From: an uncultured Gammaproteobacteria bacterium
GTDB lineage: Bacteria > Patescibacteriota > Microgenomatia > UBA10105 > UBA927
Direction: 5' to 3'
DNA: 64,000 nucleotides
Assembly (NCBI GenBank): GCA_964349125.1
Contig: CAYGFH010000003.1
Coordinates: 17,501-81,500, forward strand
Numbering within the stretch: the first letter of the stretch is position 1; every line of letters starts with the position of its first letter. The position numbers were made by a program, and so were the translations under genes. This document shows, piece by piece, positions 33,074 to 63,955 of the stretch. The notes under the pieces were generated by a model, which saw only the letters and a program-made list of their open reading frames with translations, was not told where the DNA came from and made no database searches.

Positions 33074-33076
33074 ACG

Positions 33077-34254: not shown

Positions 34255-34301
34255 ACTACACTACTTGTCTTCACCTAGCAAAGCAATTACACTTAGTCAT
34301 C

Positions 34302-38415: not shown

Positions 38416-38449
38416 CTACGCCTTTCGGGTTAGCAGGATAGAGTACACG

Positions 38450-38959: not shown

Positions 38960-39022
38960 AAATTACCTCTTCTTTATGTGTATCACCTCCCAAAGCTTAG
39001 TGTCAATAGCCCATATACTGGC

Positions 39023-40234
39023 TTATTTAAATTGACTCGTCAGATTGTAAATAGGTGTGATAACCGAAATGACGATAAACCCTACACCAACGCCCAAAAA
39101 TACCATAATGAGCGGCTCGATAGCAGTAGTAAGCCCTTTTACCAAATGCTCCGATTCTGATTCAAAATAGTTGGAGAGTTTTGTAAGTGTATCATCAAGT
39201 TTTCCCGTTTCCTCACCAACCTTCATCATTTGAGACACAATAGGTGGGAAGACTGCGTACTGGGAGAATGTTTCGCCCAATGGAAACCCTTTTTCCACTT
39301 TCTTTGATATTTCCGTGATCGCGTTTCTAAATAATACATTACCAAGTGATTCCTTCAGAATCCTAAGTCCTTCGAGAATGTGTATGCCGGAAGCGATTAA
39401 CATTCCAAGAGTCCTGGTAAACTCTACCAAAATAATTTTTTTCTGTAGCTCGCCGAAGAGGGGTATTTTCAGTATCAGTGTATCTACAACAAGCTCACCT
39501 TCCGGAGTCTTTCGCCACCTACGAAATGCCTCCACTGCGCCAAAGCCGAGTATAAGTAATAGCCACCAGTAATGGACAAAGAACCCTGAGACACCCATGA
39601 GAATTTTAGTTGATGTTGGCAAATCGATATTAAAGTCCTTGTACAAATCCGTGAGCTTCGGCACCACCACCGTCATCATGACAAACGTCACGATAGTCAT
39701 ACCTATGATGATGATGATAGGGTATATCATGGCGCCTGACACTTTACTCTTAAACTCTCGTTGCCCCTCCATAATATTTGCAAGACGATTCATTACCTGG
39801 TCAAGGGTACCAGAGGATTCCCCTGCACGTACCAGTGCTATAAACGTAGGCGGAAATAAGTCTGGGTATTTTCCCAGTGAATCAGCAAGCGTGCCACCAC
39901 CCACTATCTGGTGCTCGACTTCCTGCAGCATAGTGGCAAATACTGGATTGGATGTTTGGCTGCGCAAGATTGTTAACGCCTCTGGCAAAGAAAGGCCGGC
40001 CGTGACCATGGTCGATAATTGACGGGTGAAATTGACTATATCGGTAAAACTTACTTTGTTAAATTGATTTTTGAATCCACCAAAGGCGAACGTATCAGAA
40101 TTTTCTTTTAGCTCAACTACAAAGAGCTGCTTGTCATGAAGTAATCGTGAAGCTGTGGAATGATTTGGAGCCTCTACCAATCCGGTAAGGATTTTTCCGT
40201 CACCACCCCGAGCTTTATATCGAAATATACTCAT
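39023..40234 (-). CDS. pilC: Type IV pilus inner-membrane platform protein PilC (GspF family)
   Basis: It has two T2SS_F domains, three TM helices, and the conserved GLSLPEAL / SGTLDQVM motifs. Confidence 0.85.
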   Translation of the reverse strand: MSIFRYKARGGDGKILTGLVEAPNHSTASRLLHDKQLFVVELKENSDTFAFGGFKNQFNKVSFTDIVNFTRQLSTMVTAGLSLPEALTILRSQTSNPVFATMLQEVEHQIVGGGTLADSLGKYPDLFPPTFIALVRAGESSGTLDQVMNRLANIMEGQREFKSKVSGAMIYPIIIIIGMTIVTFVMMTVVVPKLTDLYKDFNIDLPTSTKILMGVSGFFVHYWWLLLILGFGAVEAFRRWRKTPEGELVVDTLILKIPLFGELQKKIILVEFTRTLGMLIASGIHILEGLRILKESLGNVLFRNAITEISKKVEKGFPLGETFSQYAVFPPIVSQMMKVGEETGKLDDTLTKLSNYFESESEHLVKGLTTAIEPLIMVFLGVGVGFIVISVITPIYNLTSQFK

Positions 40235-40242
40235 ACGAATTA

Positions 40243-41295
40243 TTATTGCCTCAGTAATCTTCCAAGTTCTTCGGGACGTACGGCATATGCTGTAGCTATT
40301 TCCACGCTAATTCTGCCTTCTTTCACAGCATTGGACAACGCGGTTTCAAGTGTCCGCATACCCAATTCACCTGATGTTTGAATAATATTATCAAGCAAAT
40401 GTGTCTTCCCATCACGGATCGTCGTGCGCACAGCCGGTGTCCCAGTCATAATTTCAGCAACGGCCATGCGACCGCCCCCTAATGATGGAACCAACCGCTG
40501 TGACAAGACACCCTCAAGCACTTGAGCTAGCTGCATGCGAATCTGCACTTGCTGATTTTCAGGGAATACATCGACGATGCGATCAATGGTCTGTGACGCT
40601 GAATTTGTGTGCAATGTTGCAAATACTAAATGTCCTGTTTCGGCAATGGTTATAGCTGCCTGAATCGTTTCCAGGTCTCGCATTTCGCCGATAAGTACCA
40701 CATCAGGATCTTCCCGAAGGACACTGCGAAGGGCCACATTCCACGAGTGAGTGTCCTGATGCATTTCGCGCTGTGACACAATAGACATGACTTTAGGATA
40801 TATGTACTCGATAGGATCCTCTATTGTAATTATGTGATGTGATTGTGTTTCGTTTATCTTATTAACCATCGCGGCCAACGTGGTTGATTTACCGTGTCCC
40901 GTCGGACCGGTAACTAATATAAGTCCCTGCCGTAAAGCACAAAATTCATGACATATTGCCGGCAGGCCCAGCTGATCGATTGTCCTAATCGTGTTCGGTA
41001 TTAATCGGAAATCGGCTGCAATTGTGCCTCGCTGGTAGTAAATATTTGACCGGAAACGTCCGCCCTGACTTGCTATGGAAAAATCAATTTCTTTGTTTGT
41101 TAAAAACTGGTCTTTTTGTGCATCGGTAAATATTTGGAATACAAGATCTTGAACATCCTGTGCAGAAAGAGGGGAGCTACCCTCGATAGGCTGTAGTTTC
41201 CCCGAAACGCGAATCATGGGAAAATATCCCACGATTAAATGAATGTCTGATGCCGATACGCGTACTGCTTCTGAAAAGTAAGAGTGTATATCCAT
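40243..41295 (-). CDS. pilT: Type IV pilus retraction ATPase PilT
   Basis: GLILVTGPTGHGKSTTLAAMVNKIN is Walker A. The Asp box, the His box and the ATLHTNSA motif are present. It is 350 aa. Confidence 0.85.
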   Translation of the reverse strand: MDIHSYFSEAVRVSASDIHLIVGYFPMIRVSGKLQPIEGSSPLSAQDVQDLVFQIFTDAQKDQFLTNKEIDFSIASQGGRFRSNIYYQRGTIAADFRLIPNTIRTIDQLGLPAICHEFCALRQGLILVTGPTGHGKSTTLAAMVNKINETQSHHIITIEDPIEYIYPKVMSIVSQREMHQDTHSWNVALRSVLREDPDVVLIGEMRDLETIQAAITIAETGHLVFATLHTNSASQTIDRIVDVFPENQQVQIRMQLAQVLEGVLSQRLVPSLGGGRMAVAEIMTGTPAVRTTIRDGKTHLLDNIIQTSGELGMRTLETALSNAVKEGRISVEIATAYAVRPEELGRLLRQ

Positions 41296-41299
41296 AGTA

Positions 41300-43021
41300 T
41301 TAATCCTGCGCTACGCGCAGTACCTCCTCTATTGTTGTAATGCCTTCCAATGATTTCAAGTATCCATCCTGCTTCATAGTGACCATACCATCTTTGATAA
41401 CCTGTGCTTCAATTTCATTCATAGCCGCCCGCTTCATAATAAGTTTCCCAATGATGTCAGATACCGGAAAAACCTCAAATAACGCGACGCGACCATAGTA
41501 CTTCGCTCCGTTACACGACGGGCACGGGGCATTGTTTACGACACCTTTTCCACGGTAGAGGACAATCGGTTTATCTGCAGGGATCAGTTGACCCAAGACC
41601 GACCGCATATCCGCGACGATAGTCTCGTCCGGCGTATACTCCTCACGGCATTGCGGACATATTTTTCGCGCAATACGTTGTCCGACAATCCCTGAGAGTG
41701 CAGATGCGATAAGAAATGGTTCCGCACCCAAATCCATTAACCGAGGAATAGCGCCCGCGGCATTATTCGTATGGAGCGTTGAGAAGACCAAGTGTCCAGT
41801 AAGCGACGCTTGTATAGCAAGCTCAGTCGTTTCGCGGTCGCGAATTTCTCCCACTAGAATAATATTGGGATCTTGTCGTAAAAACGACCGCAGACCCGTA
41901 GCAAACGTCAGCCCTGCCTGCGGATTTATCTGCACCTGGTTTACGCCGGAAATCTGGTATTCCACAGGATCTTCCAGTGTCATGATATTCACTTTAGAGC
42001 TGTTGAGCTTTGCAAGCACAGAATACAATGTGGTGGTTTTACCTGAACCGGTAGGACCTGTTACCAGAATAATGCCGTGAGGTCTGGTAATTGTGGTATC
42101 CAAATTTTTAAGCGCCAAACCACGAAGTCCCAATTCCTGCATGGTAGGAATGCCACCTGATTTTTTAAGCAAACGCATAACGATTTTTTCACCATGGACA
42201 GTCGGGAGTGTGGATACACGTAAATCGACTTCTGACTCTCCCATTTTAAAGTTAAATCGACCATCCTGAGGGATGCGCTTTTCATCGATCTTCATGTTGC
42301 CTAATATCTTTATTCTGGATACGACAGCATCATGAAGTCGTTTTGGCAGTACTAACCGTTCCTGTAAAATGCCGTCTACTCGGTACCTGACACGGGTATC
42401 TCCATCCTGAGGCTCAATGTGTATATCGGAAGACCGCAGTCGTACAGCCTGTTCTAGTGCGGCGGATACGATCTGGGCAATAGGTGCTTCTCTGATAACG
42501 TCTCCCAGATGTCCTGCCTCGTATGTTTTAATTTCTGAAGTTTCTGTTTCTTTAAGTGCGGCAGTGACATCATCTCCCAGGTTTTGTGTATACGCTGCCT
42601 CGATCGCTCCGAGGATATCTTCTTTGACACCCATAAATGCTCTGACAGATTTGCCTGATTTTTTTTCCAAAAATTCAATTATCTGGAAGTCCAACGGATC
42701 GATCATTGCCACAGAAAGATTGTTTGTTGCAGCATCAAACTGGAAGGGGAGTAGGGTATACCTCCTAATAACCGGCTCGGGAATATAATTGACTATATCC
42801 GGCGCGATTGCACGACCTGCAAGAGTCACAAACGGTATACCCAATGTTTTTGCCCGTGCCTTAGATAAATCAAGCTCTGATACAGCACGCTTCCGTTTAA
42901 GAATGGATTCTATACTTTCACCACTGGAGAGAGACTCTGTAGTGACATTATCCGCATCAATACGTGAGATGCGGTGATCTTCGACAAGGACATTGAGAAT
43001 TTCTTGGGCAGTGGCAGACAT
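41300..43021 (-). CDS. pilB: Type IV pilus extension ATPase PilB (GspE family)
   Basis: An N-terminal T2SSE_N domain is present. The Walker A is GIILVTGPTGSGKTTTLYS. The CPQC...CPSC tetracysteine motif is present. It is 573 aa. Confidence 0.9.
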   Translation of the reverse strand: MSATAQEILNVLVEDHRISRIDADNVTTESLSSGESIESILKRKRAVSELDLSKARAKTLGIPFVTLAGRAIAPDIVNYIPEPVIRRYTLLPFQFDAATNNLSVAMIDPLDFQIIEFLEKKSGKSVRAFMGVKEDILGAIEAAYTQNLGDDVTAALKETETSEIKTYEAGHLGDVIREAPIAQIVSAALEQAVRLRSSDIHIEPQDGDTRVRYRVDGILQERLVLPKRLHDAVVSRIKILGNMKIDEKRIPQDGRFNFKMGESEVDLRVSTLPTVHGEKIVMRLLKKSGGIPTMQELGLRGLALKNLDTTITRPHGIILVTGPTGSGKTTTLYSVLAKLNSSKVNIMTLEDPVEYQISGVNQVQINPQAGLTFATGLRSFLRQDPNIILVGEIRDRETTELAIQASLTGHLVFSTLHTNNAAGAIPRLMDLGAEPFLIASALSGIVGQRIARKICPQCREEYTPDETIVADMRSVLGQLIPADKPIVLYRGKGVVNNAPCPSCNGAKYYGRVALFEVFPVSDIIGKLIMKRAAMNEIEAQVIKDGMVTMKQDGYLKSLEGITTIEEVLRVAQD

Positions 43022-43831: not shown

Positions 43832-44455
43832 CTACGCTTCATTGGCATTTTTTTTCTGCCTTGAACTCACGTGACCCTCCATATCAATTTTATAGATAAG
43901 CAATTCCCCTGTTTTAAGCTCAACTTTTTCTATATCACTATCTGAAATGTTTTCTAAAAATTTTATAAGCGCCCGAAGACTATTTCCGTGCGCCACCACT
44001 AGAACGCACTCACCCGACATAAGAAAGGGCAGTATGGATTCGGTATAATACGGGATAACCCGATCATATACCTGCTTCAAATTTTCACCTTGTGGGACAA
44101 CAGTATCCCACCCTCTACGAAGTGCTTTGTATCCTGATTCGCCCAATTCAGCCTGAACCTGGGTTTTGTTTTTCCCAGTATATATCCCATAATCACGTTC
44201 GTTTAGTGCACTGTTTTTTGCGATTGGTATCTGCGAATATCCTAACTCCTCCAAGATAATGAATAGTGTCTGTTGCGCACGAGATAGTTCGGATGTAAAT
44301 GCACGAGAAATAGCTCTGTTTGTGAGTTGTTTTGCTGCCTTAGCTGCTTCAATTTTCCCGTTATCAGACAATCCTATATCGGTAAGGCCTGTCCATACGT
44401 TTTGTGCATTCCACAACGATTCACCATGACGGACAAGAATAAGAGTGCCATGCAT
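43832..44455 (-). CDS. gpmA: 2,3-bisphosphoglycerate-dependent phosphoglycerate mutase
   Basis: LILVRHGESLWNAQNVWTGLTD is the RHGE catalytic His motif. The start is taken at the internal ATG. The track start at 44485 extends into pgk. Confidence 0.85.
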   Translation of the reverse strand: MHGTLILVRHGESLWNAQNVWTGLTDIGLSDNGKIEAAKAAKQLTNRAISRAFTSELSRAQQTLFIILEELGYSQIPIAKNSALNERDYGIYTGKNKTQVQAELGESGYKALRRGWDTVVPQGENLKQVYDRVIPYYTESILPFLMSGECVLVVAHGNSLRALIKFLENISDSDIEKVELKTGELLIYKIDMEGHVSSRQKKNANEA

Positions 44456-44465
44456 ACTGATACGA

Positions 44466-45659
44466 TTATGACACATGCAGGCCATTTTTCAACGTCTCAA
44501 TGGTTGGTAAGGTTCCTTTCTCAATAAACTCCAACATAGCGCCGCCACCTGTGGAAATCAGAGAGATTTTTGATAGGATAGCAGAATCTGTGATAGTGGA
44601 AATAGTATCCCCTCCACCTACAATACTCCGGCATTCAGTTCCTGCGATGTCCTCACAGGCTTGCCTCGTACCTATCGAGAACCTGGCATCTTCGTATAAC
44701 CCGAGAGGACCGTTCCAGATTATGGTTTTCGCCCCCCGTATTATTGTGCGCAGCTCAGTTCTGGCAACAGGTCCTACATCATAAATACCCATTCCCATAG
44801 GTACTTTGTCATAGGGAAACACCATTGGTTTTGTTGTTCTCTCTATGTTACTAACAACCACATCGCTAGGAAGCAACAATCGGGAAGGAACACGAGTCGC
44901 TTTCCAGAGGACACTTCTGGCCATTTCTATCATTTCATAATCCACCTTCGATACGCCCACTCCTATACCCCATGTCGCAAAGAAGGTGTTTGCTATGGCG
45001 CCTCCCAAATATATAGTATCGGCGACCTCCAATAACTTATCAATTACGCGAATTTTCTCGGGTGTCTTCCCACCCCCGATTATGACCAACAAAGGACGTT
45101 CAGGCTCTTTTACAGCGTGCGATATCATCTCTATTTCCCGCGCAAACAATAATCCTGCATATGAAGGAAGGTATGCGGTTATGCCGACAGTTGAGGCATG
45201 TGTCCTGTGGGCGGCTCCAAAGGCATCATTCACATAGATATCCCCAAGCCTTGAGAGTTTTTTTGCAAATACCGGATCGTTTAATTCCTCTCCCTTTTGA
45301 AAACGGATATTTTCGCACAATACGACTGACCCCGGCGGCAATGCGCGAATATCAGAAACCGCTTCATCTTCGAGGTATGAATCTATGAAAAATATATCTT
45401 TTTTCAACAACTTCGATAACCGTTTTGACACGCCCGATAGGGACAGTGACGGGTCCGCCTCACCTTTTGGACGTCCGAGATGGGAAAGCAAGATAACGAT
45501 TGCTCCATGGGCGATCAAATATTCAATGGTGGGTAATGCTTCGCGAATGCGTTTATCATTTGCTATCTCATTATCTGCAGTCAACGAAACATTAAAATCC
45601 ACTCGCACAATGACGCGCTTTCCCGAAACGTGTATGTCTTGAATTTTGGGAATTTCCAT
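44466..45659 (-). CDS. pgk: Phosphoglycerate kinase
   Basis: RVDFNVSL...ILLSHLGRPKG...GGGDT are PGK signatures. Confidence 0.9.
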   Translation of the reverse strand: MEIPKIQDIHVSGKRVIVRVDFNVSLTADNEIANDKRIREALPTIEYLIAHGAIVILLSHLGRPKGEADPSLSLSGVSKRLSKLLKKDIFFIDSYLEDEAVSDIRALPPGSVVLCENIRFQKGEELNDPVFAKKLSRLGDIYVNDAFGAAHRTHASTVGITAYLPSYAGLLFAREIEMISHAVKEPERPLLVIIGGGKTPEKIRVIDKLLEVADTIYLGGAIANTFFATWGIGVGVSKVDYEMIEMARSVLWKATRVPSRLLLPSDVVVSNIERTTKPMVFPYDKVPMGMGIYDVGPVARTELRTIIRGAKTIIWNGPLGLYEDARFSIGTRQACEDIAGTECRSIVGGGDTISTITDSAILSKISLISTGGGAMLEFIEKGTLPTIETLKNGLHVS

Positions 45660-45660
45660 A

Positions 45661-46662
45661 CTATATTTTTATTGCACAATGTACCGCCATATCAACAAGA
45701 CGGTTGGCATAGCCCCATTCATTATCGTACCAGGCCGTCACATGGATGAGGGTACCGGAAACAACATCTGTCAAAAAAGGATCGACGACAGCAGAGTGCG
45801 GGTTACCGATATAATCTGTTGAGACCAATTCCTCCGCTGCGACATCCAAAATACCGTGCAGCATAGCCTGTTTGGCATGCTCAAACGCAGCGTTGACAGT
45901 TTCAGGGGATACCGACTTGGATACTTCAACAACGAGATCTATGAGTGATACGGTTGGGGTAGGAACCCGCACGGCACGGCAGGGCAATACACCTTTGAGA
46001 TGGGGGAATAGCTTAGCAACATCTTTTGCCGATCCACTGGTAGCCGGAATCAGATTTACCAACGCACTTCTCCTATCACGAATACCTTTTGGCTGGGAGT
46101 TGTCCAGAAGATTCTGAGAGTCGGTTGCTGCGTGAACAGTCGTCATGGATCCGCGTATCACACCGAACTGTTCATCTAACACGGAAAGGACAGGAGCGAT
46201 GCAATTTGTGGTGCACGAAGAGTTCGATACGATCTGTTCTCCGGACCACTTCTGGTGGTTAACCCCCATCACAAATGTCGGTGTATCATCTTTGGCCGGT
46301 GCAGATATGACCACTTGTGTCACACTGTCTCGCATATGCGCACGTGCTGTATCCGTTGTAGTAAATTTCCCTGTACACTCAAGCACAGTCTCTACTTTGA
46401 GTGACTGCCATGGGATTTTTGAAGGATCTTTTTCACGAAAGCAGGCGACTGAATTGCCATCGATACCTATGGATGAGTCTGTATATGTTACCGCGCGGGA
46501 GAATGTTCCCTGTACCGAATCATGTGAAAGCAAATACGCGTGGGACTCAGGTGCCGCGCCGCTGTTGATTGCGACAAGTTCCACATCAGTTCGTCCCAGT
46601 ATCACACGGGCGGCATTTCGACCAATCCTGCCAAATCCATTGATGCCTATTTTTCGTTTCAT
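45661..46662 (-). CDS. gap: Glyceraldehyde-3-phosphate dehydrogenase (type I)
   Basis: The N-terminal Rossmann motif is IGINGFGRIGRN, and the catalytic motif is SNSSCTTNCIAPV. Confidence 0.9.
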   Translation of the reverse strand: MKRKIGINGFGRIGRNAARVILGRTDVELVAINSGAAPESHAYLLSHDSVQGTFSRAVTYTDSSIGIDGNSVACFREKDPSKIPWQSLKVETVLECTGKFTTTDTARAHMRDSVTQVVISAPAKDDTPTFVMGVNHQKWSGEQIVSNSSCTTNCIAPVLSVLDEQFGVIRGSMTTVHAATDSQNLLDNSQPKGIRDRRSALVNLIPATSGSAKDVAKLFPHLKGVLPCRAVRVPTPTVSLIDLVVEVSKSVSPETVNAAFEHAKQAMLHGILDVAAEELVSTDYIGNPHSAVVDPFLTDVVSGTLIHVTAWYDNEWGYANRLVDMAVHCAIKI

Positions 46663-54743: not shown

Positions 54744-56033
54744 CTAACTTCGGATAAGTTTGTACCCGCGGGTTACAACGGTTTCGATGCTGTATGGGCT
54801 GGATTGAGACTTCAGTTTGCTTCGAAGTCTCGCTATGAGACGGTCAACCGCCCAATCTGATACACCCATCTCGTGGCTCTCAGGCCATACCGTATCAATT
54901 ATGGCTTCCCGTTCACAGAGTTGCCCGACATGAGATTCCAGGTAGCTAAATAATGCAAATTCTTTTTTGGTGAAGTCGCGTCCAAGCTGTGTGTTTCGTG
55001 AAAGTGAGTTCACATACGACGCAAACAATGGGCTAAAAAACGTGGGCTTACCGTCCGTACCCTGCACAATGCCGGTGTTCCACAGATACACCGCATGCTC
55101 TTTTTCCACGGTAGATATAGGACCACCTTTGTTTATTTGAATCACTATATCTTTCTCATGTTTTGTAAGGCTATCAAACAATTCCTCGGACTGGAATACA
55201 ATCTGCTCGTCCAATGGGAGTAATTCGATGAACGCGTCTTCAGACGCATCTCCAGCCTCTTCGTGCAGGCGTATGAGCGCATACTGCACAAACTGCACAT
55301 ACCCACCCGATACCTCCAGTATACGATCCAGCAACTTGGCAGATGGAGCTACATGATACTGTTCAATCAGTGTCTGTGCGACGATCTTCATATCGCCGTC
55401 AGTGGCAACAGGCAGATACATATCTTTGGTAAATACTGACAAAAATTGTTTTTTGAATATGGTTGGAGATAAGTCAGGAAGGGCTCGGTGGCTAGTAAAT
55501 ACATAGGATAGTTGTTGTTTTACTGAATCACGAAGACCTAACAGGTTACTGAAGAAATCCTGTGTGAACACTTCTGAGAGCCTGTCGAAGCGTATGAGAA
55601 ACAACGTCGGATACAATCCAGCCGCAATAATCGTTTCTATCACTTTCCGTACGCTATCAAGTGTAAAAAAATGATCCTTCAGCTGTATGCTTTGGACAAA
55701 CAATTTTCGGCATGCTTTCTTATCGGTCTCAGACAGACTGGAATGCTCAGCGGCATCAACAACCCGAGTCAGTAACAGTGTCCAAAACGCGCTTAAATTG
55801 CGCTCAATGAGATCATTTAAATCCACCTGCACAAATAATTGCGGTTGATTAGTCCGTATGTACGTGGATGGGACTTGTGGATGGTTGATGAAAAACCTGA
55901 GAAAATTACTGATACCCACACGTTTCATCCCGACGAGTACGACTGATTTCTGTTGCTGTATATAGTGTCCCAATTGTTCTGCTTCTTTTTTTCTGAATTC
56001 TATCGGATAGGTTGTTTCAGTCACCTGTTTCAT
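54744..56033 (-). CDS. Transcriptional regulator with an N-terminal AAA/ORC-like NTPase-like domain (degenerate Walker A) and a C-terminal OmpR/PhoB-type winged-helix DNA-binding domain
   Basis: The C-terminal LFSYLESHVGQLCEREAIIDTVWP...VDRLIARLRSKL...TVVTRGYKLI is a trans_reg_C domain. The N-terminal VVLVGMKRVGISNFL is P-loop-like but lacks GK[ST], and LFLIRFDRL is Walker B-like. Confidence 0.6.
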   Translation of the reverse strand: MKQVTETTYPIEFRKKEAEQLGHYIQQQKSVVLVGMKRVGISNFLRFFINHPQVPSTYIRTNQPQLFVQVDLNDLIERNLSAFWTLLLTRVVDAAEHSSLSETDKKACRKLFVQSIQLKDHFFTLDSVRKVIETIIAAGLYPTLFLIRFDRLSEVFTQDFFSNLLGLRDSVKQQLSYVFTSHRALPDLSPTIFKKQFLSVFTKDMYLPVATDGDMKIVAQTLIEQYHVAPSAKLLDRILEVSGGYVQFVQYALIRLHEEAGDASEDAFIELLPLDEQIVFQSEELFDSLTKHEKDIVIQINKGGPISTVEKEHAVYLWNTGIVQGTDGKPTFFSPLFASYVNSLSRNTQLGRDFTKKEFALFSYLESHVGQLCEREAIIDTVWPESHEMGVSDWAVDRLIARLRSKLKSQSSPYSIETVVTRGYKLIRS

Positions 56034-56294
56034 AGCCGTATTGTAGCATGATTTGCGTTTGACTCAAACGACACTCATGTTACCTACCATTCCACTCAAG
56101 ACACGTACCTTCTCGAGCCATATGATACTGATGTGTTCATGAAAATATTGTGATGTTCAGAATTTATCATTTTCACCTGATCGTGCCTGTTGTCAGATGG
56201 ATGTCAGAGAAAAAATACCTCTTAGTCAAGCGAGATGGGCTGTTGTAATCCACAATACAACATACACAGCTCCAGCTGTGAATTTTTTTGATAT

Positions 56295-58085
56295 ATGAGA
56301 AGCGCAGAATACGATCATTTGGGGAGTCTCGCAAACGCTCATAGCCAGGAAGGGCTCTGGAGCAATCGGGGGTTGCACCCTCGGGCACCGTTAGAGGATA
56401 TTTCGCACACTCCAGTACAAACGCTCCTTGATCAGGCACAATACAATGTATATGAAAGCATAAAAAGCCCTGAACACCTTCCTCCCAACGGTACTGTAGT
56501 GTATGTACGCACACATGAAACAGTTTCCGGAAGTAGGGTGAATATACCGGTTATACAAAGGTCGCATATACCTAAAATAGATCCCGAATCAATACAGAGG
56601 GCAAAAGACGCATTTGGACTTCATACTGACGCAGAATTTCAAGGGATATTGGATGAACGTGTGAGAATGAGATTGAATCATGTGGGACGATCTGAATTAG
56701 CTGAAAAACGCGGTGAAAAAACAGTTGCTGAGCTTATACATACAATAATGAATTTTGATCAAATATGGACCCATGATTTTGACGGAACACTGACTTATTC
56801 CAAAATTTTACGAACCAAAGAAGGCAAGCTTGACGTCAAAGAATATTATAGAAGAGGTGATATCCAAACGCTGATGAATCTTGATGCGATTATTGTGAAA
56901 TCTCTCTTGGGTATTCCGCAGCATATTTGTACAGGAAAAGGATGGAATTTTAGGATTGTGAAAGAGTATATGAGGGAACGAACCGCGCAACTCGCGGAAG
57001 CATTTGGCATGCAAAAACGCATGCATGACGGTGCGTTACAATCGCTTCTGGACAGAAATCGTGGTGTATTTCTTGCAATTTCTGTAGGCAACGGTGCTGA
57101 TACCGAAGAAATTATGAGGAATGAAAAGTTGGTACACAAAGTCTTACCAATTTCGGCTTGGGAGGGAATGGCTAAACATGCCGATTTGCTCAGGAAATCA
57201 ACGAAAAAAGAGAGAATTGAACAAATTGAAAGAGTTAAAGGCATTCATGGATATGTACCGTATAACGTTGAAGCGGATACGTATAAACCTGTTGATCCTA
57301 AAAAATGTACAAACGTTGTGCATCGGGTAATAAAGAAACCTTTGACTCAACGAAATTACAATAAACGTGAAATTTCGCCGAAGTTTACGGCAGAAGAAAC
57401 CGCTCACATCCAGAAGTTGCAACGCGCAGTTCAGGATCATGCGTTATTTGAGGAAGATCAGAATACAAAATGTAACTATGTCATTAATTTTGAAGCCATA
57501 ATAGCTAATCAGGATGGCATACAGGATGAATGGAAGAAGGCAACCGGTGTTACCATACGATCAGTAGATGATTTCATGAGGGCATTCAGACGATTATCAA
57601 AAGATTGGAATATAAAATCGTATGTCAATGAAGCGCATGGCACCATTTACGTTGATATTAACCCTCCACGCATGCATAAGGGAGTAAGCGCCAGACTGGT
57701 AAAGAATGCCGCGCAATTTTTTATGCGACGTGATCTCGAAAAAGCAGGAATATCCCCTAAAATGGCGCCAAAACTGATGACGTTTACAATGGCAGACGGA
57801 CATGTCATCGGTATACAGAATGACAGTGATCTGCTACACAGGACGCGGGGTGCTGTCGTAACCAAAAAGAAAGAACGATATCACAAACCTGATGCCAAGG
57901 GATACCCAGTATACTTGAGTGATATCCTGGGTATTGAGGATCCACTGACTCATGCGTACACGTATCTATATGACACAACACTGTTGAGTTGCCCGACCCC
58001 GATAGGAACTTTTGTTGAAGACGTGGTCCATAATCTGAATGATGAACATGTCAGAAATATGAAAAGATATAAGAGAAGAACATAA
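56295..58085 (+). CDS. Hypothetical 596 aa protein with a HAD-like DxDGT motif, first gene of the sugar-kinase / Leloir operon
   Basis: It has no TM segments. WTHDFDGTLTY at about residue 160 resembles HAD motif I, as in phosphomannomutase or cN-II type HADs. A possible motif IV-like SVGNGAD lies about 100 aa later. The rest has no recognisable family. Confidence 0.45.
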   Translation: MRSAEYDHLGSLANAHSQEGLWSNRGLHPRAPLEDISHTPVQTLLDQAQYNVYESIKSPEHLPPNGTVVYVRTHETVSGSRVNIPVIQRSHIPKIDPESIQRAKDAFGLHTDAEFQGILDERVRMRLNHVGRSELAEKRGEKTVAELIHTIMNFDQIWTHDFDGTLTYSKILRTKEGKLDVKEYYRRGDIQTLMNLDAIIVKSLLGIPQHICTGKGWNFRIVKEYMRERTAQLAEAFGMQKRMHDGALQSLLDRNRGVFLAISVGNGADTEEIMRNEKLVHKVLPISAWEGMAKHADLLRKSTKKERIEQIERVKGIHGYVPYNVEADTYKPVDPKKCTNVVHRVIKKPLTQRNYNKREISPKFTAEETAHIQKLQRAVQDHALFEEDQNTKCNYVINFEAIIANQDGIQDEWKKATGVTIRSVDDFMRAFRRLSKDWNIKSYVNEAHGTIYVDINPPRMHKGVSARLVKNAAQFFMRRDLEKAGISPKMAPKLMTFTMADGHVIGIQNDSDLLHRTRGAVVTKKKERYHKPDAKGYPVYLSDILGIEDPLTHAYTYLYDTTLLSCPTPIGTFVEDVVHNLNDEHVRNMKRYKRRT

Positions 58086-58092
58086 GTAACAA

Positions 58093-59196
58093 ATGATTGA
58101 CAAACTCATAGAGCAGAAGTACAGTGTGAACATTATGGATTTACAAACTATCACAAAAAACTTTGTACAAGAGCTTCAGGATGCCAACACTGGCAAAAAA
58201 ACCAGTCTGCCGTTTATAGTCCATGAAATTCCTGGGGCCTCAATCGTCCCTGAGGGGAAAACATTTCAGGTACTCAAAATCGGCGGATCGATACTCCAAA
58301 AATCCAGAGTCGTATCAGAGGGTGGAAAAACAATTATTAAAACATTGGAAGAAGAACAACTCCCCGTATTTACCACTAAAGATTTGTTTCTTTCTACGAT
58401 GGATAAACATATTGATCCGGATCTCGAATATCTCGCCCTCAATTTTGCATACCCGATGACACCTGTCATGCGAGATGGCGTACTGGACGGTATACTCACC
58501 AATGGAACAAAAGAGCATGCATTTCAGGGACTGGTTGGCCAAGCTGTGGGTGAAACCATAGAGTTATATATCCAGAGTAAGTACAATCGAAAGATTCGCG
58601 TGGCAGTTGCCAATGATACGATCTGCCTAACAATGGCGGGACTCAGTAAGTATCCTGCGACATCCATAGCAGGGGGAATTGTGGGAACGGGATTGAATTT
58701 TGCGTTTTTCCTCGACCATACGCATCTGGTCAACCTCGAAGCCGCAAATTTTGATAAATTTGAGCAGTCTGAAGAGGGCAAGCAAATCGATGCGCAGTCA
58801 CTCACACTCGGGAGATCCCTGTATGAAAAAGAAACCGCAGGGGGATACCTCTACTATCATCTCAATTTACTGCTGACCAAGAATCAGATTAAACACCCGT
58901 CTATAGAGAGTACAAAACAATTGGACCGGTTAGCCCGCGGAAATATCCAAAAGGTGTCGAAACTCGCCAGATCTCTATTTGAACATTCCGCGTCACTCAT
59001 AGCGTGTGAAGTGGCCGGCATAACAAATTATGCCAAGAGGGATATGACCTTTGTCATGGAGGGCAGTCTGTTTTGGGTCGGCTGGCACTATAAAGAAATG
59101 GTCGAAGAAAAGGTAAAACAGTTGACCCCCTATACGGTACAGTTCGAAGAGATAAAAGACTGTGGCATTATCGGGGCTGCAAAGCTCATTTCGTAA
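58093..59196 (+). CDS. Hexokinase-family (eukaryote-type actin-fold) sugar kinase
   Basis: AVANDTICLTMAG matches the hexokinase AIVNDTVGTL motif, GGIVGTGLNFAFF matches GIIVGTGTNACY, the C-terminal VMEGSLFWVGWHYKEM matches AVDGSVY..P, and GIIGAAKL is present. Confidence 0.75.
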   Translation: MIDKLIEQKYSVNIMDLQTITKNFVQELQDANTGKKTSLPFIVHEIPGASIVPEGKTFQVLKIGGSILQKSRVVSEGGKTIIKTLEEEQLPVFTTKDLFLSTMDKHIDPDLEYLALNFAYPMTPVMRDGVLDGILTNGTKEHAFQGLVGQAVGETIELYIQSKYNRKIRVAVANDTICLTMAGLSKYPATSIAGGIVGTGLNFAFFLDHTHLVNLEAANFDKFEQSEEGKQIDAQSLTLGRSLYEKETAGGYLYYHLNLLLTKNQIKHPSIESTKQLDRLARGNIQKVSKLARSLFEHSASLIACEVAGITNYAKRDMTFVMEGSLFWVGWHYKEMVEEKVKQLTPYTVQFEEIKDCGIIGAAKLIS

Positions 59197-59202
59197 GAAC
59201 GT

Positions 59203-60462
59203 ATGGACAAAGCCGTGCGACTACCTAACAAAGAATTCGATTTACCTTCGCGCATCACAAGAGAATCAGAGCATTTTGCCAACCTATTCGGGACACGTCC
59301 CACCGTCATCGCCAGAGCACCAGGCCGGGCGGAAATTCTGGGCTGTCATACTGATTACAATTGGGGATACGCCCTTGCTGCAGGGATCAACAAAAGCACG
59401 CTCACCTTTATGAGCAAGCGGGAGGATAACACCATCGCGCTGTTCTCGAACTCGTACCCTCAAAACACACCCGTGATCTTTTCTATAGATTCTCTGGTAC
59501 GGGATGAAGAACTGACATGGCCAAACTATAGTAAAGCGGTAGTTCGTGAGCTTCTTCGCAACCAGTACACAGTAGGAGGCGCAAATATCCTCATAGACAG
59601 TACCGTGCCAAAATCAGGAGGTGTATCCAGTTCCGCAGCGCTGGAACTTGCCATCGCTTATGGTCTTTTGGCACTCTATGATCAGGAAATTGATGTGACA
59701 AAGATCGCCCTGTTATGTAAAAATGCCGAAAACAGTGATCTGGTAAAAAGCCCGTGCGGTTTTCTGGATCAGGGAGCTTCGGCATATGCCAAAGATGACG
59801 GCATGGTATTTATGGATTTTTTGCCGTCCGGCACATCTCCGGTTTCTGCTATTGATGTTATACCTGCACAATTCTCTACATCCGCTTCGTTCGTAATACC
59901 TGTTGATCCCACGTTGGAGCGCCAATTGGGTGAATCCGGGTATGTGGTTCGAAGACAAATGTGTGAGGAGAGCTGGCCATTTTGGTCTCAGGTGCTCGGA
60001 CGCGAAATAAAAAGCTTACGTGACGTTTCGTACGATGAGTTCATGACACACCGGGATGCGCTCGAGAAACATAACCCGATCATGCGCATGCGTGTGGAAC
60101 ACATCATCACGGAAAATAAACGAGTGCTGGACGCTGTGGAGGCACTGAAACAAAAAGATATCGAGACATTTGGCAAACTCTTAACCGAAGCCGGAAGAAG
60201 CTCCCTCGAACTGTATCAGCTCGATGAAAACACACCACAACTCACATTTTTGGTTGAAAAAGGAAGGGATCTCCCCGGGGTGATCGGAATGCGCAATATG
60301 GGCGGCGGATTTTCTGCGATTGCACTCGCATTGGTCAAAGATGAGCAAATGAAGGAATTCCAATCCACGTTGTCCTCTCTGTATATGGCAGAGTTTGGAA
60401 GAACACTTGAGTTTATCGAGTTTACCCCAAGCCAAGGGGCTTCAGTACTCGTACAGCCATAG
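59203..60462 (+). CDS. galK: Galactokinase (GHMP kinase)
   Basis: ARAPGRAEILGCHTDYNWGYAL is the galactokinase signature, and PKSGGVSSSAALELA is GHMP motif II. Confidence 0.85.
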   Translation: MDKAVRLPNKEFDLPSRITRESEHFANLFGTRPTVIARAPGRAEILGCHTDYNWGYALAAGINKSTLTFMSKREDNTIALFSNSYPQNTPVIFSIDSLVRDEELTWPNYSKAVVRELLRNQYTVGGANILIDSTVPKSGGVSSSAALELAIAYGLLALYDQEIDVTKIALLCKNAENSDLVKSPCGFLDQGASAYAKDDGMVFMDFLPSGTSPVSAIDVIPAQFSTSASFVIPVDPTLERQLGESGYVVRRQMCEESWPFWSQVLGREIKSLRDVSYDEFMTHRDALEKHNPIMRMRVEHIITENKRVLDAVEALKQKDIETFGKLLTEAGRSSLELYQLDENTPQLTFLVEKGRDLPGVIGMRNMGGGFSAIALALVKDEQMKEFQSTLSSLYMAEFGRTLEFIEFTPSQGASVLVQP

Positions 60463-60469
60463 TGTAAGT

Positions 60470-61489
60470 ATGATAGATTTTACTAAACCTCACCGAAGAA
60501 GAAATCCATTGATAGGGGAGTGGGTATTGGTGTCTCCTCACCGGGCAAAGCGCCCCTGGCAGGGGAGTATAGAGCCCACACAACCAGCACAAGCACCAGA
60601 GTATATGGAGGACTGTTATCTGTGTCCTCACAATACCAGGTCAAACGGGGAGAAAAATCCTGACTACACCAAAACATTCGCGTTTACCAACGACCATGCT
60701 TCGTTGCTCCCTGACGCTCTAGGAGATTCTCCGGAAGATACCGATTTGCTATACGCAGTGCAGGAGCGGGGGCTCTGTCGTGTCATCTGTTACTCGCCAA
60801 AGCACAATACAACCATGGCGGATTTATCTGTGGATGAAATCAAAGAAATAGTCCTCACATGGAAAAATGAGTATGAAACCATCGGGAAAATGGATCAAAT
60901 ATCCTATGTTCAAATATTTGAAAACAAAGGCCCTCTTATGGGAGCAAGCAGCCCCCACCCACATGGACAAATATGGGCAAACGAACACTTGCCGACGATT
61001 GTCCAAAAAGAACAACAGCATCAATTGGCATATAACCGGGAACATTCATCTCCGTTGCTCCTTGCATATGTACAGAGGGAACTGGAGAAACAGGAACGAC
61101 TTGTCATTGAAAATGAAGCATTTGCAGTCGTGGTACCGTTTTGGGCAACATGGCCATATGAGACGATGGTCTTACCAAAACGGCATATCCGATCCCTGAG
61201 CGATATGAGAAGTACAGAGCACACCCAGCTTGCGGACATATTAAAACGGCTCACATCCCGCTATGATAAGCTTTTTTCCACACCATTTCCGTACTCAATG
61301 GGCATCCACCAAAAACCAACGGATAGAGAAGAACATCCCGAATGGCAATTCCATATGCACTTTTACCCGCCGCTCCTTCGAAGTAGTACAATAAAAAAGT
61401 ATTATGTAGGGTACGAAATGATGGCTGAAGGACAACGGGACATATCGCCTGAGTCAGCAGCAAAAACGTTACAGGAGATCCATGACTGA
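60470..61489 (+). CDS. galT: Galactose-1-phosphate uridylyltransferase
   Basis: RRNPLIGEWVLVSPHRAKRPWQG, the CxxC zinc site (CYLCP), and the HPHGQIWA HxHxQ active site are present. The start is taken at the ATG at 60470, after the galK stop. Confidence 0.85.
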   Translation: MIDFTKPHRRRNPLIGEWVLVSPHRAKRPWQGSIEPTQPAQAPEYMEDCYLCPHNTRSNGEKNPDYTKTFAFTNDHASLLPDALGDSPEDTDLLYAVQERGLCRVICYSPKHNTTMADLSVDEIKEIVLTWKNEYETIGKMDQISYVQIFENKGPLMGASSPHPHGQIWANEHLPTIVQKEQQHQLAYNREHSSPLLLAYVQRELEKQERLVIENEAFAVVVPFWATWPYETMVLPKRHIRSLSDMRSTEHTQLADILKRLTSRYDKLFSTPFPYSMGIHQKPTDREEHPEWQFHMHFYPPLLRSSTIKKYYVGYEMMAEGQRDISPESAAKTLQEIHD

Positions 61490-62468
61490 TACCCAGTTTT
61501 CATCGACAATAGAACATACAGAAGTGTACGGTACGGTTGTTACGTTACGCTACACGCCATCGTCCGACGGAAAAAAACCCATTACCGTATCCGTAGCCCC
61601 CGATCGGGGGAGCAATATGTTTGCTTTTCGGTATGGGGAGAGTGACATTATCTATACAGAACCAGAACTTCTAAAGACCTGTGGATTTACGGGAAATTTT
61701 GTTCTGTTTCCCACACCCAACAGAGTCAAGGATGCACAGTACACGTGGCATGGTCGAACCGTCAGACAGAAAAAACACACCGAGGCACGGATACTCCATG
61801 GACTCGTGTACGATGAGTCCTGGCAGTTCGATGCCCCGATCGTTTCCGACGATGCTGTTTCAGTAACTACGTTCATATCCATCACAGGGCAATCGTCTCT
61901 ATATGAGTCTTATCCATTTTTATCTACATTGAGGCTTTGCTATACACTTCGATCCAGTGGAGTCACTGTTACATATACAGTGAATAATGACGGGGATGAG
62001 GACATGCCGTTTGGGTTTGCCTTGCATCCGTATTTTTCCCTCCTATCCGGCAGTGAAAACACATACATATCCGTACCTGCAAAAAGCTGGATGGAATCAC
62101 CCAGCGATACGTTACTGCCAACTGGAAATCTTATAGACGTTTCCGGTAAACCCTATAATATAAATACTCCACGGCCTATAGCAGAATTATCGCTTGATCA
62201 TGTGTACACAGACCTGGTGCCCAGGCAGTATGCGACTATCGAATACAGGACACTCGGCCTACGGCTATCACTTCTCACCACGGAAGATTTCACGCATACG
62301 GTGGTGTATACCGGTCACAAAAATGCGGTGTGTATCGAAAATCAAACGTGTTCCACAGACGCCGTTAACCTTTCAAACCGCGGGTACATACGGGAATCGC
62401 ACGTACTCACACTCAAGCCGGACGCCACACACAAAGGAACTATTTCATATACCATCAATTCCTTATAA
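61482..62468 (+). CDS. galM: Aldose 1-epimerase (galactose mutarotase-like)
   Basis: FALHPYF is the aldose-epimerase motif. It has a beta-sandwich family size. There is an ATGACTGA overlap with galT. Confidence 0.7.
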   Translation: MTDTQFSSTIEHTEVYGTVVTLRYTPSSDGKKPITVSVAPDRGSNMFAFRYGESDIIYTEPELLKTCGFTGNFVLFPTPNRVKDAQYTWHGRTVRQKKHTEARILHGLVYDESWQFDAPIVSDDAVSVTTFISITGQSSLYESYPFLSTLRLCYTLRSSGVTVTYTVNNDGDEDMPFGFALHPYFSLLSGSENTYISVPAKSWMESPSDTLLPTGNLIDVSGKPYNINTPRPIAELSLDHVYTDLVPRQYATIEYRTLGLRLSLLTTEDFTHTVVYTGHKNAVCIENQTCSTDAVNLSNRGYIRESHVLTLKPDATHKGTISYTINSL

Positions 62469-62620: not shown

Positions 62621-63454
62621 GTGGCTAAATTGCCGTTGTTATACGTTTCATGTTTCTATTCATACATACACGTTATGGGTGCAGAACAACCAACATCATT
62701 TGAGGGGTTTGAACAAGAAGCATATCAGCTATTATTCAAGCCAAGGATATCAGAGGCATTTCTTTCCAGGTCGACTGTGAACTGGGAATTAATTACTGAT
62801 ATTGGCGATGATGGTGTAGCGTTTCATTTTTTCCAGACTAGGAATTCATTTCAGGTTACAGATGTAGCAAACGCTCTATTTAACGATGGGAGTGATCTGT
62901 ATATCGCATCATATGAGAACGGCCAGATACATCCGGTAGCACAAATTAAACGTGGAAATATGCTTGCTCGATTGATAGAGCGCTTTGATCTCGCAACGCA
63001 TAATCTAAAATATTACCATCACGCCCTCGCATCTGACTGGCTTTTATATACATCACTTGATGAGGAGTTCGCTCTCCTTCACAAACATCACACGTGTATT
63101 GAACTAGAAGATAATTGGGTGAGTGTTTTTACAAATTACCAATTCGCTAAGGAACATACTCGGTTCATCAATTCAACTAACTTAACCTGGAAACACCCCT
63201 GGATACCTAAAGGGTCAACTATAACATCCAAATATCCCACTCTAGTAAAAAATCCTGATGTGCGCGGTAACGGATTTACACCATATGGTAATAAAAATGG
63301 CATAGTTCCTATAGAGATCGATAATACTGACACTATTATGTTTGCCTGCTCTGTAACTGACTCCGGACTTGTTATCCCAGCCCGTCCGATTCATGAGGAT
63401 TATCGAGAATCCATGTATAGGTTGTATATGAATGCGCACAGCGCAAACGAGTGA
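62621..63454 (+). CDS. Hypothetical protein (no recognisable domain)
   Basis: An open frame of 277 aa. An alternative start lies at 62675 (MGAEQPT...). It follows the gal operon. Confidence 0.4.
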   Translation: MAKLPLLYVSCFYSYIHVMGAEQPTSFEGFEQEAYQLLFKPRISEAFLSRSTVNWELITDIGDDGVAFHFFQTRNSFQVTDVANALFNDGSDLYIASYENGQIHPVAQIKRGNMLARLIERFDLATHNLKYYHHALASDWLLYTSLDEEFALLHKHHTCIELEDNWVSVFTNYQFAKEHTRFINSTNLTWKHPWIPKGSTITSKYPTLVKNPDVRGNGFTPYGNKNGIVPIEIDNTDTIMFACSVTDSGLVIPARPIHEDYRESMYRLYMNAHSANE

Positions 63455-63466
63455 GAACAAATCGTA

Positions 63467-63955
63467 TTACAGGTCATATGCAGGCAATTCTGATGGCCTG
63501 AATCTAGGTGTTTTAGTCCAGAGTTTTTGACGTGGAGATCTAAAGTGCTGTAACTGATCAAACACATCCTGATGCACACTCACAACTGATCCATTCAGTA
63601 AAAATTTCTGTTTATTTCTTGCTGTGAGTGACTGAATAAATGACTCGCGTATTATAGCGTCAAAATACCCGGTTGGTTTTCCCGTACTACGTGATAATTC
63701 AGAAACCAGCGGGGCAAGAAACAAATAACTTAACCCATGATCATACTCACCCAATACCCACTCAAGTGATCGCTTAGGGGTGTGCGCACTTAATATCCGG
63801 TTAGACGCAAAGTCTTTTGTCAGAATATCTCCGCGAATTGTTTGCAGTACGCTATCCCACACATAGTAAAAATTAGCCCCGTGCATTTCAAACGCCAATC
63901 CTGTATGTCCCTTTTCAGGGTCCTCAAGTGATAAGAAGTAATTCCACGCTGACAT
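63467..63955 (-). CDS. Hypothetical protein (no recognisable domain), convergent with the 62621 gene
   Basis: A 162 aa open frame. The frame may continue upstream toward the window end. Confidence 0.35.
   Translation of the reverse strand: MSAWNYFLSLEDPEKGHTGLAFEMHGANFYYVWDSVLQTIRGDILTKDFASNRILSAHTPKRSLEWVLGEYDHGLSYLFLAPLVSELSRSTGKPTGYFDAIIRESFIQSLTARNKQKFLLNGSVVSVHQDVFDQLQHFRSPRQKLWTKTPRFRPSELPAYDL

Follow-up and report, generated by a model that had tools for sequence, protein, structure and literature searches.

A divergent HAD-IIB protein encoded with a hexokinase-family kinase in a sugar operon of Patescibacteria

What does the first gene of a five-gene sugar operon do when no sequence model recognizes its product, and to which of its neighbours does it belong? 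The operon lies in a 64-kb stretch of DNA, analyzed as a whole and referred to here as the window. An earlier note on this DNA described five tightly packed genes headed by a protein of no recognizable family, and both points hold: the five plus strand ORFs are separated by 7, 6, 7 and -8 nt, and the product of gene 1 (56295-58085, + strand; 596 aa, or 570 aa from the alternative start TTG 56373), which we call X, gave no family match in Pfam or NCBIfam. Gene 2 (58093-59196, + strand) encodes a 367-aa hexokinase-family sugar kinase. The Leloir genes proposed to follow it were largely recovered. Gene 3 (59203-60462, + strand; 419 aa; Pfam GalKase_gal_bdg, GHMP_kinases_N/C) encodes a galactokinase-like GHMP kinase (GalKase_gal_bdg 51.2 bits, GHMP_kinases_N 53.6 bits) that scores 214.2 with NCBIfam gal_kin, just below the cut-off of 226.65. 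Gene 4 (60470-61489, + strand; 339 aa from the ATG, ahead of which the mechanical ORF opens at TTG 60395) is GalT, with 500.5 bits for the NCBIfam PRK11720 equivalog (cut-off 448) and both Pfam GalT domains. Gene 5 (61482-62468, + strand; 328 aa), proposed to be a mutarotase, is an aldose-1-epimerase family protein (Pfam Aldose_epim, 124.7 bits) but does not match the canonical GalM equivalog (galM_Leloir 28.9 versus 397.65). Genes resembling gap-pgk-gpmA are present nearby on the minus strand (43832-46662), and neither phosphoglucomutase (PGM) nor GalE was found among the scanned window ORFs of at least 150 aa, in line with the earlier description. Base composition gives no indication that the region is foreign. 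No defence or phage elements were found.

Public gene calls place the start of X at TTG 56373, with a conserved GGAG 10 nt upstream, while comparison with the related locus L001 favours ATG 56295: the first 11 codons after this ATG encode the same amino acids in both loci with five changes at third positions, after which comes a 9-nt in-frame indel. Residues are numbered below according to the 570-aa form; adding 26 gives the 596-aa form, in which the stretch WTHDFDGTLTY occupies residues 158-168. Relatives of X were hard to find. A word-indexed homolog search returned only 2-3, a genome scan with patterns specific to the window lineage gave zero matches, and a metagenome scan recovered locus L007 again and nothing else. 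The family alignment comprises 16 members with 23-76% identity, the relatives being 370-570 aa long and the window protein 570-596 aa. None of these 16 members matched the Pfam HAD clan or NCBIfam at E<=1, PADLOC and PHROGs searches returned nothing for X, and a PDB profile search reached an E-value of 0.31 at best, at motif I. An NCBIfam SglS match (18 bits against a cut-off of 170) and PDB matches to ATP-grasp (E 0.005) and STING (E 0.64) proteins were set aside as noise.

The signatures D-x-D-x-T, (S/T)-G-K, K and (G/A)D...ND show little or no variation across the 16 members. The predicted catalytic residues are D135 and D137 (motif I), T187 (motif II) and K436 (motif III), with D475 and N483-D484 predicted to form motif IV. 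All members that span this part of the alignment have D135 and D137, nearly all have T139, K436 and D475 are invariant, and N483-D484 is invariant or nearly so. The residue after the second motif I aspartate is H or K, not G, in most members, and the motif IV spacing is x7 in the window protein, x6 in several relatives and x4 to x12 in others. The N-terminal ~125 residues form a poorly conserved extension that is modelled with low confidence.

AF2 run on a two-sequence alignment gave a pLDDT of 32, and only the 16-sequence alignment yielded a usable model. In this model, motif I lies at the end of strand 129-135, T/S187 follows strand 183-186, K436 starts helix 436-457 and D475 ends strand 468-475. 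Foldseek with the model returned HAD-IIB proteins as all 11 of the top 11 PDB matches (E 1e-5 to 2e-3). The model has no C1 cap after motif I and carries an alpha/beta cap between motifs II and III, where ~250 residues separate T187 from K436 and cap strands are predicted at 234-255, 367-371 and 415-430. Alignments to IIB proteins take in both core and cap, over 201-234 residues of chains that are mostly 225-293 residues long; the extra helices and long loop of X (256-410) found no match. The conserved motifs and the predicted Rossmannoid core mark the DxDGT stretch, which had been noted as reminiscent of HAD motif I, as a genuine one, and the cap predicted with this core is of subclass IIB, as in eukaryote-type phosphomannomutase (PMM). 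Judged by its motifs and its modelled fold, X is a very divergent member of HAD subclass IIB with a cap about twice the usual size. It is a new variant of this subclass, restricted to a small group of Patescibacteria.

The nearest known proteins differ from X in several respects. Cof-type HAD-IIB phosphatases (Pfam Hydrolase_3; BT4131 1ymq, YidA 1rkq, SupH/YbiV 2hf2, PfHAD1 4qjb) are ~230-290 aa long, whereas X has 570-596 aa, ~250 residues between motifs II and III and an N-terminal extension, is recognized by no sequence model and is almost always paired with a hexokinase-family gene. When the Cof-type protein encoded in the window itself was compared with X by hhalign, motif IV alone aligned (probability 1.6%). 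PMM and Lactococcus lactis PgmH (Pfam PMM; 2fuc, 6i5x, 4bnd) have GGSD as motif II, and X is more than twice their size.

Gene 2 was confirmed as a member of the hexokinase family (Hexokinase_1 30.6 bits, gathering threshold 24.3; Hexokinase_2 49.7 bits, gathering threshold 24), and alignment to glucokinase and hexokinase chains showed that the sugar-site positions T-K, N-D (with the catalytic Asp), N, E and E are kept. The suggestion that it is an unusual, eukaryote-like hexokinase for a bacterium needs correction. It belongs to a clade of short kinases that is widespread in Patescibacteria and has at least 689 relatives, and all six relatives that carry an organism name are assigned to Patescibacteria, Microgenomates or Beckwithbacteria. 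There is also no sign of a recent transfer from eukaryotes, since gene 2 shares little identity with eukaryotic enzymes (best PDB E-value 2e-9). Eukaryotic hexokinases and glucokinases share the Pfam domains and the sugar-binding and catalytic residues with gene 2, but they are ~450-480 aa long compared with 350-370 aa in the gene 2 clade, and identity is very low. The hexokinase phosphate-1 motif is D-L-G-G-T. Gene 2 has K-I-G-G-S at this position, and nearly all of the 119 aligned clade members have (K/R)-(I/V)-G-G-S, which does not match the D-x-G-G-T of the hexokinase family.

Which genes accompany X is apparent from 11 lineages. A hexokinase gene lies directly downstream of X in eight, including the most distant member (23% identity); in a ninth, the two genes are in one operon, in a tenth, X is followed by a PfkB kinase, and in the eleventh (L022), X has no neighbouring sugar kinase. 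Thus, a sugar kinase shares the operon of X in 10 of 11 lineages, rather than X occurring in unrelated contexts. The gal genes, in contrast, accompany X in only four, and in the other seven neither gal genes nor another visible source of glucose-1-phosphate is found near X. The sister lineage L004 has galK-galT-galM-hexokinase and no X, and L005, also without X, has a HAD-PfkB-hexokinase-gal operon whose first gene encodes a non-homologous HAD protein (PF12710). The earlier idea that X supplies the missing PGM of a Leloir operon is therefore weak, and it is the hexokinase-family kinase, rather than the Leloir genes, that is conserved as the partner of X. Other genes of the island vary between lineages while the X-kinase pair persists, and the best explanation is that X and the downstream sugar kinase form a fixed, co-transcribed module. 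All X lineages share one syntenic island and belong to one clade, so part of this linkage may be inherited rather than selected. A 641-aa HAD-like protein in L004 was considered as a replacement for X and rejected; it travels with an FGGY-DeoC-PfkB module, and the same type coexists with X in L020 and is thus not a non-orthologous replacement.

Upstream of X, a divergent gene (54744-56033, - strand) encodes a 429-aa regulator (Pfam Trans_reg_C, 58.7 bits). Its C-terminus (residues ~340-429) is an OmpR/PhoB-type winged-helix DNA-binding domain, and PDB sequence matches to the DNA-binding domains of WalR, CadC and PhoB cover residues 340-429 only; the N-terminal ~340 aa belong to no known family and are not a receiver domain. 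All related loci that extend far enough carry an ortholog of the regulator next to the island. A repeat pattern search revealed a putative operator (56191-56231, + strand) composed of three direct TGTCA-type repeats in helical phase: TGTCAG at 56191-56196, TGTCAG at 56202-56207 (+11 nt) and aGTCAAGC at 56224-56231 (+22 nt). The 64-kb window has a single occurrence of the pattern TGTCAK-N5-WGTCAG, where 0.01 would be expected, and 17 of 20 loci likewise have one each. Wherever a matching locus contains X, the pattern precedes X, and in L005 it precedes the leading gene of the HAD-PfkB-hexokinase-gal operon; L004 and L020 have relaxed variants. We infer that the neighbouring winged-helix regulator binds this element, and it probably switches the X-kinase module on through these phased repeats. 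Between the putative operator and ATG 56295, a terminator-like match was detected, consisting of the hairpin CACAGC-tcca-GCTGTG and seven T (56265-56289, + strand). The stem and T-run are kept in L001 with a different loop (two comparable lineages), and the hairpin could be a terminator or attenuator in the leader or a 5´ stem-loop. A promoter consensus scan was at background (17 matches versus 14.8 expected) and gave no confident promoter placement.

We tentatively favour, at somewhat short of even chances, the reading that X is a sugar-phosphate phosphatase feeding the downstream kinase. X is predicted to be a catalytically competent Asp-nucleophile, Mg2+-dependent phosphoryl-transfer enzyme, and its most likely chemistry would be the hydrolysis of a hexose phosphate carrying the phosphate elsewhere than at C6; the candidate substrate in the window, at a guess, is alpha-glucose-1-phosphate released by GalT. 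The hexokinase would then phosphorylate the freed hexose to hexose-6-phosphate, such that X and the kinase would constitute a two-step, ATP-consuming route to the glucose-6-phosphate pool. X may alternatively act as a relief valve against sugar-phosphate build-up. Both the substrate and the preference for phosphatase over mutase chemistry are presumed; the fold and motifs of X fit either activity. For a phosphatase, the motif II TGK and the GNG that follows it are reminiscent of phosphatases of the Cof, T6PP and MPGP types rather than of PMM with its GGSD, and the order of X first and kinase second matches that of product and substrate. The PF12710 HAD protein in first position behind the same operator in L005 was also counted for this reading. 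Characterized HAD-IIB enzymes are mostly phosphatases. On the other side, co-expression of a kinase and a phosphatase costs ATP and risks a futile cycle, which would be costly for an energy-poor fermenter, and the long GD-x6/7-ND spacing of motif IV resembles that of PMM; Cof-type enzymes have GD-x2-ND. Glucose-1-phosphate as the substrate is further argued against by the seven of 11 lineages without a visible source and by the Leloir genes and hexokinase of L004, which occur without X.

The main rival, possible though on the doubtful side, is that X is a HAD-IIB phosphohexomutase like eukaryote-type PMM or L. lactis PgmH. Such an enzyme would interconvert hexose-1-phosphate and hexose-6-phosphate via an aspartyl-phosphate and a bisphosphate intermediate. 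With free hexose entering through the kinase and glucose-1-phosphate through X, the two products that arise from disaccharide cleavage or the Leloir pathway would both reach glucose-6-phosphate, and in reverse X would provide hexose-1-phosphate for nucleotide sugars. This would be energetically cheaper than hydrolysis and re-phosphorylation, and it would suit the lack of a PGM among the scanned window ORFs. Precedents exist: L. lactis relies on an alpha-PGM of the HAD type (Neves et al., 2006, JBC 281:36864, as referenced in PMC4595796), and the eukaryotic mannose route consists of hexokinase followed by HAD-type PMM (PMC8808168). The motif IV spacing, x7 in X and x6 in several relatives but ranging from x4 to x12 in others, is close to that of PMM2 (GDKTMPGGND, x6), and the only local profile alignment of X was to PMM, over motifs III and IV, and was weak (hhalign E 0.0086, probability 4.7%). 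In structure, however, X resembles PMM or alpha-PGM no more closely than it does plain phosphatases. It has CTGKG as motif II where PMM2 has VGGSD, and Pfam PMM is absent from all 16 family members at E<=1. Nor is it obvious why a mutase should have to be encoded strictly next to a kinase; linkage to GalT or phosphorylases would be expected instead, yet gal genes are optional beside X and L004 has Leloir genes without it.

Improbable, too, is a biosynthetic role for X like that of the SPP, T6PP, MPGP or GpgP phosphatases, in which it would dephosphorylate a disaccharide or glycoside phosphate (for instance sucrose-6-P, trehalose-6-P or glycosyl-3-phosphoglycerate). T6PP, MPGP and sucrose-phosphate phosphatases (6upb, 3ztw, 1s2o) are encoded with their synthases, whereas a partner synthase (glycosyltransferase) was found near X in none of the 11 lineages, the partners being kinases and catabolic genes. 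We consider it very unlikely that X is a non-catalytic or regulatory partner of the hexokinase, such as a sensor or scaffold: the kinase adjacency is very persistent and no function is known for the N-terminal extension or the cap insertions, but the catalytic HAD residues are all invariant or nearly so across 23-76% identity, and pseudo-enzymes usually lose theirs. A nucleotidase like ISN1 or cN-II, an alternative raised earlier, is equally remote: such enzymes score below some 25 sugar-phosphate enzymes (cN-II falling outside the top 60), with no Pfam nucleotidase matches and a sugar-kinase context throughout.

The literature searched held nothing relevant on a Candidate Phyla Radiation hexokinase with galactose, on a Microgenomates galactokinase or on a glucose-1-phosphate phosphatase/hexokinase bypass. 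Reconstructions of Candidate Phyla Radiation metabolism generally lack glucokinase or hexokinase and show an incomplete upper glycolysis (PMC9166423). The locus shows that Microgenomates-like genomes widely carry a divergent clade of the hexokinase family and that, in one sub-clade, this hexokinase is tied to an unannotated, double-sized HAD-IIB enzyme with a dedicated regulator and a putative operator, within an island that is a variable kit of sugar genes. Conceivably, though we regard it as doubtful, X and the kinase provide a route between hexose-1-phosphate and hexose-6-phosphate without classical phosphoglucomutase, either through an independent HAD-type mutase or through an obligate phosphatase-plus-kinase bypass. 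If true, the mutase form would be a separate invention alongside PMM/PgmH and beta-PGM, and either form would represent a previously unrecognized entry into glycolysis in a Patescibacteria clade. Should X merely be another promiscuous sugar phosphatase, the gain would mainly be better annotation. Knowing which reaction X catalyses would close a gap in the picture of how these uncultivated organisms metabolize sugars, and X would add a new HAD branch with an unusual cap to a phosphatase superfamily that is among the best studied.

Five genes form a putative operon on the + strand, with intergenic gaps of 7, 6, 7 and -8 nt, as the earlier note had described from the sequence. The first gene (X, 56295-58085), 596 aa from its ATG, also has an alternative TTG start at 56373 that would give 570 aa, and residue numbers here refer to the shorter form. 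It is followed by a hexokinase-family kinase (58093-59196), which scored above the gathering thresholds for both Pfam Hexokinase_1 and Hexokinase_2, and by a galactokinase-like GHMP kinase (59203-60462) that just missed the NCBIfam equivalog cut-off (214.2 vs 226.65). The last two genes encode GalT (60470-61489; NCBIfam 500.5 vs 448) and an aldose-1-epimerase family protein other than the canonical GalM equivalog (61482-62468). A GAPDH-PGK-histidine-phosphatase (gpmA-like) cluster is located 10 kb upstream of the operon, and neither PGM nor GalE was found among the scanned window ORFs (150 aa or longer). Base composition is uniform in the window.

X belongs to no family in Pfam or NCBIfam, and sequence models (Pfam, NCBIfam, PDB profile search and hhalign) do not recognize it. 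An alignment of 16 X family members (23-76% identity) revealed a set of invariant or near-invariant residues, D135 and D137 (DxDxT), T/S187 in (S/T)-G-K, N240-G241, K436, D475 and N483-D484, that correspond to the four HAD motifs in their usual order. The AlphaFold model built from this alignment (pLDDT 77.4, rising to ~90 across residues 130-570; pTM 0.73) places each motif at its expected element, three at strand ends (129-135, 183-186 and 468-475) and one where helix 436-457 begins. In a Foldseek search against the PDB, the top 11 matches, among them BT4131, YidA, human PMM1 and a T6PP, were all HAD subclass IIB (E 1e-5 to 2e-3). X carries an N-terminal extension, and the ~250 residues that separate its motifs II and III are far more than these structures of 230-290 residues could accommodate. 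Because motifs, model and structural matches agree, X is predicted to be a HAD-IIB enzyme with a large insertion between motifs II and III. The earlier suggestion that the DxDGT sequence is a HAD motif is thus borne out at the level of the fold, while the proposed likeness to cN-II nucleotidases found no support.

The family is small. A word-indexed search of 5.8 billion proteins returned only the identical 570-aa public protein, starting at TTG 56373, and one 76% relative. Exhaustive HMMER searching of 1.84 billion representatives gave 17 proteins (12 at E<=1e-10), and in each the match begins at the DxDGT motif. Members were present in only four of 185,579 species-representative genomes, and a JGI metagenome scan detected one locus. 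The N-terminal ~125 residues, modeled with low confidence, are restricted to the window lineage and fast-evolving (dN 0.42 vs 0.11 for the core, window compared with the related locus L001). In the same comparison (56373-58085 vs L001 7972-9687), X is saturated at synonymous sites (pS at least 0.75), with dS of 0.8-1.8 for the neighboring hexokinase, galK, galT and epimerase genes and dN of only 0.04 for hexokinase; X may be older in history than its neighbors, or the neighbors may have been swapped by recombination.

We compared gene context across 11 lineages with X and two without. All of the loci correspond to one syntenic island, bounded on one side by a ~430-aa regulator whose winged helix is of the OmpR/PhoB type and on the other by an integrase/AP-endonuclease pair. 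Its content varies and includes gal genes, kinases of the PfkB and FGGY families, a DeoC/DUF2090 aldolase, GH1, a GDE_C protein and several unknown proteins. A hexokinase gene directly follows X in eight of the 11 lineages, including that of the most distant family member (23% identity), where two tandem hexokinase-family paralogs are found (L023, 3059-5101). Of the remaining lineages, one has the order X-galK-galT-galM-hexokinase (L009), one shows a fructokinase-like PfkB gene after X and then the contig end (L012/L013), and L022 alone has no kinase gene beside X. Only four lineages combine X with gal genes. A Candidatus Gottesmanbacteria MAG that shares synteny, with GyrA 83% identical to that of the window, has X and hexokinase as the only recognized island genes between regulator and integrase, and L004, a lineage without X, carries galK-galT-galM-hexokinase-GH1. 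Given the constant pairing with a kinase, the optional gal genes and a Leloir set without X in L004, X is tied to the kinase and not to the Leloir pathway. The idea that X supplies a missing Leloir enzyme is therefore unsupported, as the L004 Leloir genes manage without it.

The compared loci also encode other HAD proteins and unannotated genes. In L005, the second lineage without X, a 340-aa PF12710-type HAD of the subclass IB type (5734-6756; FIFDMDLTLT) is the first gene behind a TGTCA operator, in the order HAD-PfkB-197aa-hexokinase-galK-galT-galM. Another unannotated family of HAD-IIB-like proteins (612-641 aa; L004 2694-4619; L020 6012-7850) has the motif I D-I-N-(G/S)-T, with Asn for the second Asp, together with T-G-R-P, N-K-x-S and G-D-S-x-x-D. 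It always adjoins the FGGY kinase, DeoC/DUF2090 aldolase and PfkB kinase genes, and occurs alongside X in L020. The FGGY kinase gene is whole in L020 (4522-6006, 494 aa) and split into two overlapping ORFs in L004 (1204-2689, in a 1.22-Mb genome), probably a pseudogene or frameshift. Proteins of 313 aa (L007 7221-8162) and 271 aa (L005 4784-5599) are homologous (29% identity, E 5e-15) and, like three ORFs (245-260 aa) that precede X in L015 (5133-7721), match no Pfam family; L007 also has a second hexokinase-like gene (5885-7216, 443 aa). L018 and L020 (CAZQTD010000007.1 and CAYUKU010000011.1) are labeled 'uncultured Gammaproteobacteria bacterium' yet show the same Patescibacteria synteny as here, and CAZQTD010000007.1, also the contig of L015, encodes a GyrA 81% identical to that of the window. 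Their Gammaproteobacteria label is probably wrong.

In alignment, the kinase retains the sugar-site and catalytic residues of glucokinase/hexokinase, in a clade that is short (about 350-370 aa). The phosphate-1 motif of hexokinases is D-L-G-G-T, whereas this loop (residues 61-66 of the window kinase) reads (K/R)-(I/V)-G-G-S in nearly all of 119 aligned Patescibacteria clade members, which may reflect a different metal or phosphoryl-donor arrangement. Since there are at least 689 relatives, the named ones being Patescibacteria, Microgenomates and Beckwithbacteria, the kinase is a resident CPR family rather than one acquired recently from eukaryotes. Its presence stands out, since glucokinase/hexokinase is described in surveys as generally missing in CPR (PMC9166423).

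The loci also share a putative operator. The sequence TGTCAK-N5-WGTCAG occurs once in the window (56191-56207, vs 0.01 expected), between X and the divergent regulator gene (54744-56033, - strand), and as a single copy in each of 17 of 20 loci. It lies upstream of X in every matching X locus, including L007 and L015, where genes intervene between regulator and X, and in L005 it precedes the HAD(PF12710)-PfkB-hexokinase-gal operon. Most loci have a third repeat, GTCAAGC, 22 nt further on. Direct repeats phased by 11 and 22 nt are a suitable target for an OmpR-type winged helix, and we infer that the regulator binds these phased TGTCA repeats. A hairpin with a T-run (56265-56289) is kept in L001 with a different loop. 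X is a new, clade-restricted HAD-IIB variant whose kinase partner and operator are conserved.

Elsewhere in the window are genes for type IV pili, for sortases and for a large surface protein of the SpaA/SdrD type, besides a compact housekeeping set. This gene content, the taxonomy of the named kinase relatives and the synteny shared with the Gottesmanbacteria MAG assign the window to a Microgenomates-like member of the Candidate Phyla Radiation (CPR). After the 1320-aa prealbumin-fold surface protein (33-3995) come two genes for sortases (4983-5597 and 6539-7105) and small unknown ORFs, an arrangement resembling a sortase-dependent locus for a pilus or adhesin. The type IV pilus region (27872-43021) is large and encodes PilM, a PilO-like protein, several N-methyl pseudopilins, a prepilin peptidase, T2SSF and two T2SSE ATPases; genes for YfhO-like and TMEM260-like glycosyltransferases are scattered among these. 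A canonical Cof-type HAD (Hydrolase_3, 20033-20884) is closely flanked by an inosine-uridine nucleoside hydrolase (20881-21783) and an unknown 380-aa ORF (18894-20036), and the three could serve in salvage of nucleotides or nucleosides. Beyond the operon, two ORFs (62621-63955; 277 aa, + strand, and 162 aa, - strand) have no Pfam, PADLOC or PHROG family, the larger matching only IS256 in NCBIfam, far below the cut-off (12.2 bits vs 150); the L002 counterpart of this region runs on to an integrase gene.

Fold and motifs predict aspartyl-phosphate chemistry on a phospho-ester for X, and gene context points to hexose phosphates as substrates. We tentatively regard X as a phosphatase paired with the kinase, a reading we hold at somewhat under even chances. 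Characterized HAD-IIB enzymes are mostly phosphatases, as are the nearest structures; motif II and the NG turn resemble those of Cof-type phosphatases; X precedes the kinase gene; and a subclass IB-type HAD occupies its position in L005. Glucose-1-phosphate, because GalT makes it, would be a natural candidate substrate in the window, a guess against which stand the L004 Leloir genes without X. That X is instead a mutase is the main alternative and somewhat less likely. This route would be cheaper in energy, has precedents in L. lactis PgmH and the eukaryotic hexokinase-to-PMM route, and would agree with a weak alignment to PMM and with the spacing of motif IV, which is near the x6 of PMM2 in the window protein (x7) and several relatives (x6) but x4 to x12 in others. 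The chemistry of X is likely conventional, but X offers a useful lead for CPR sugar metabolism and for HAD evolution.
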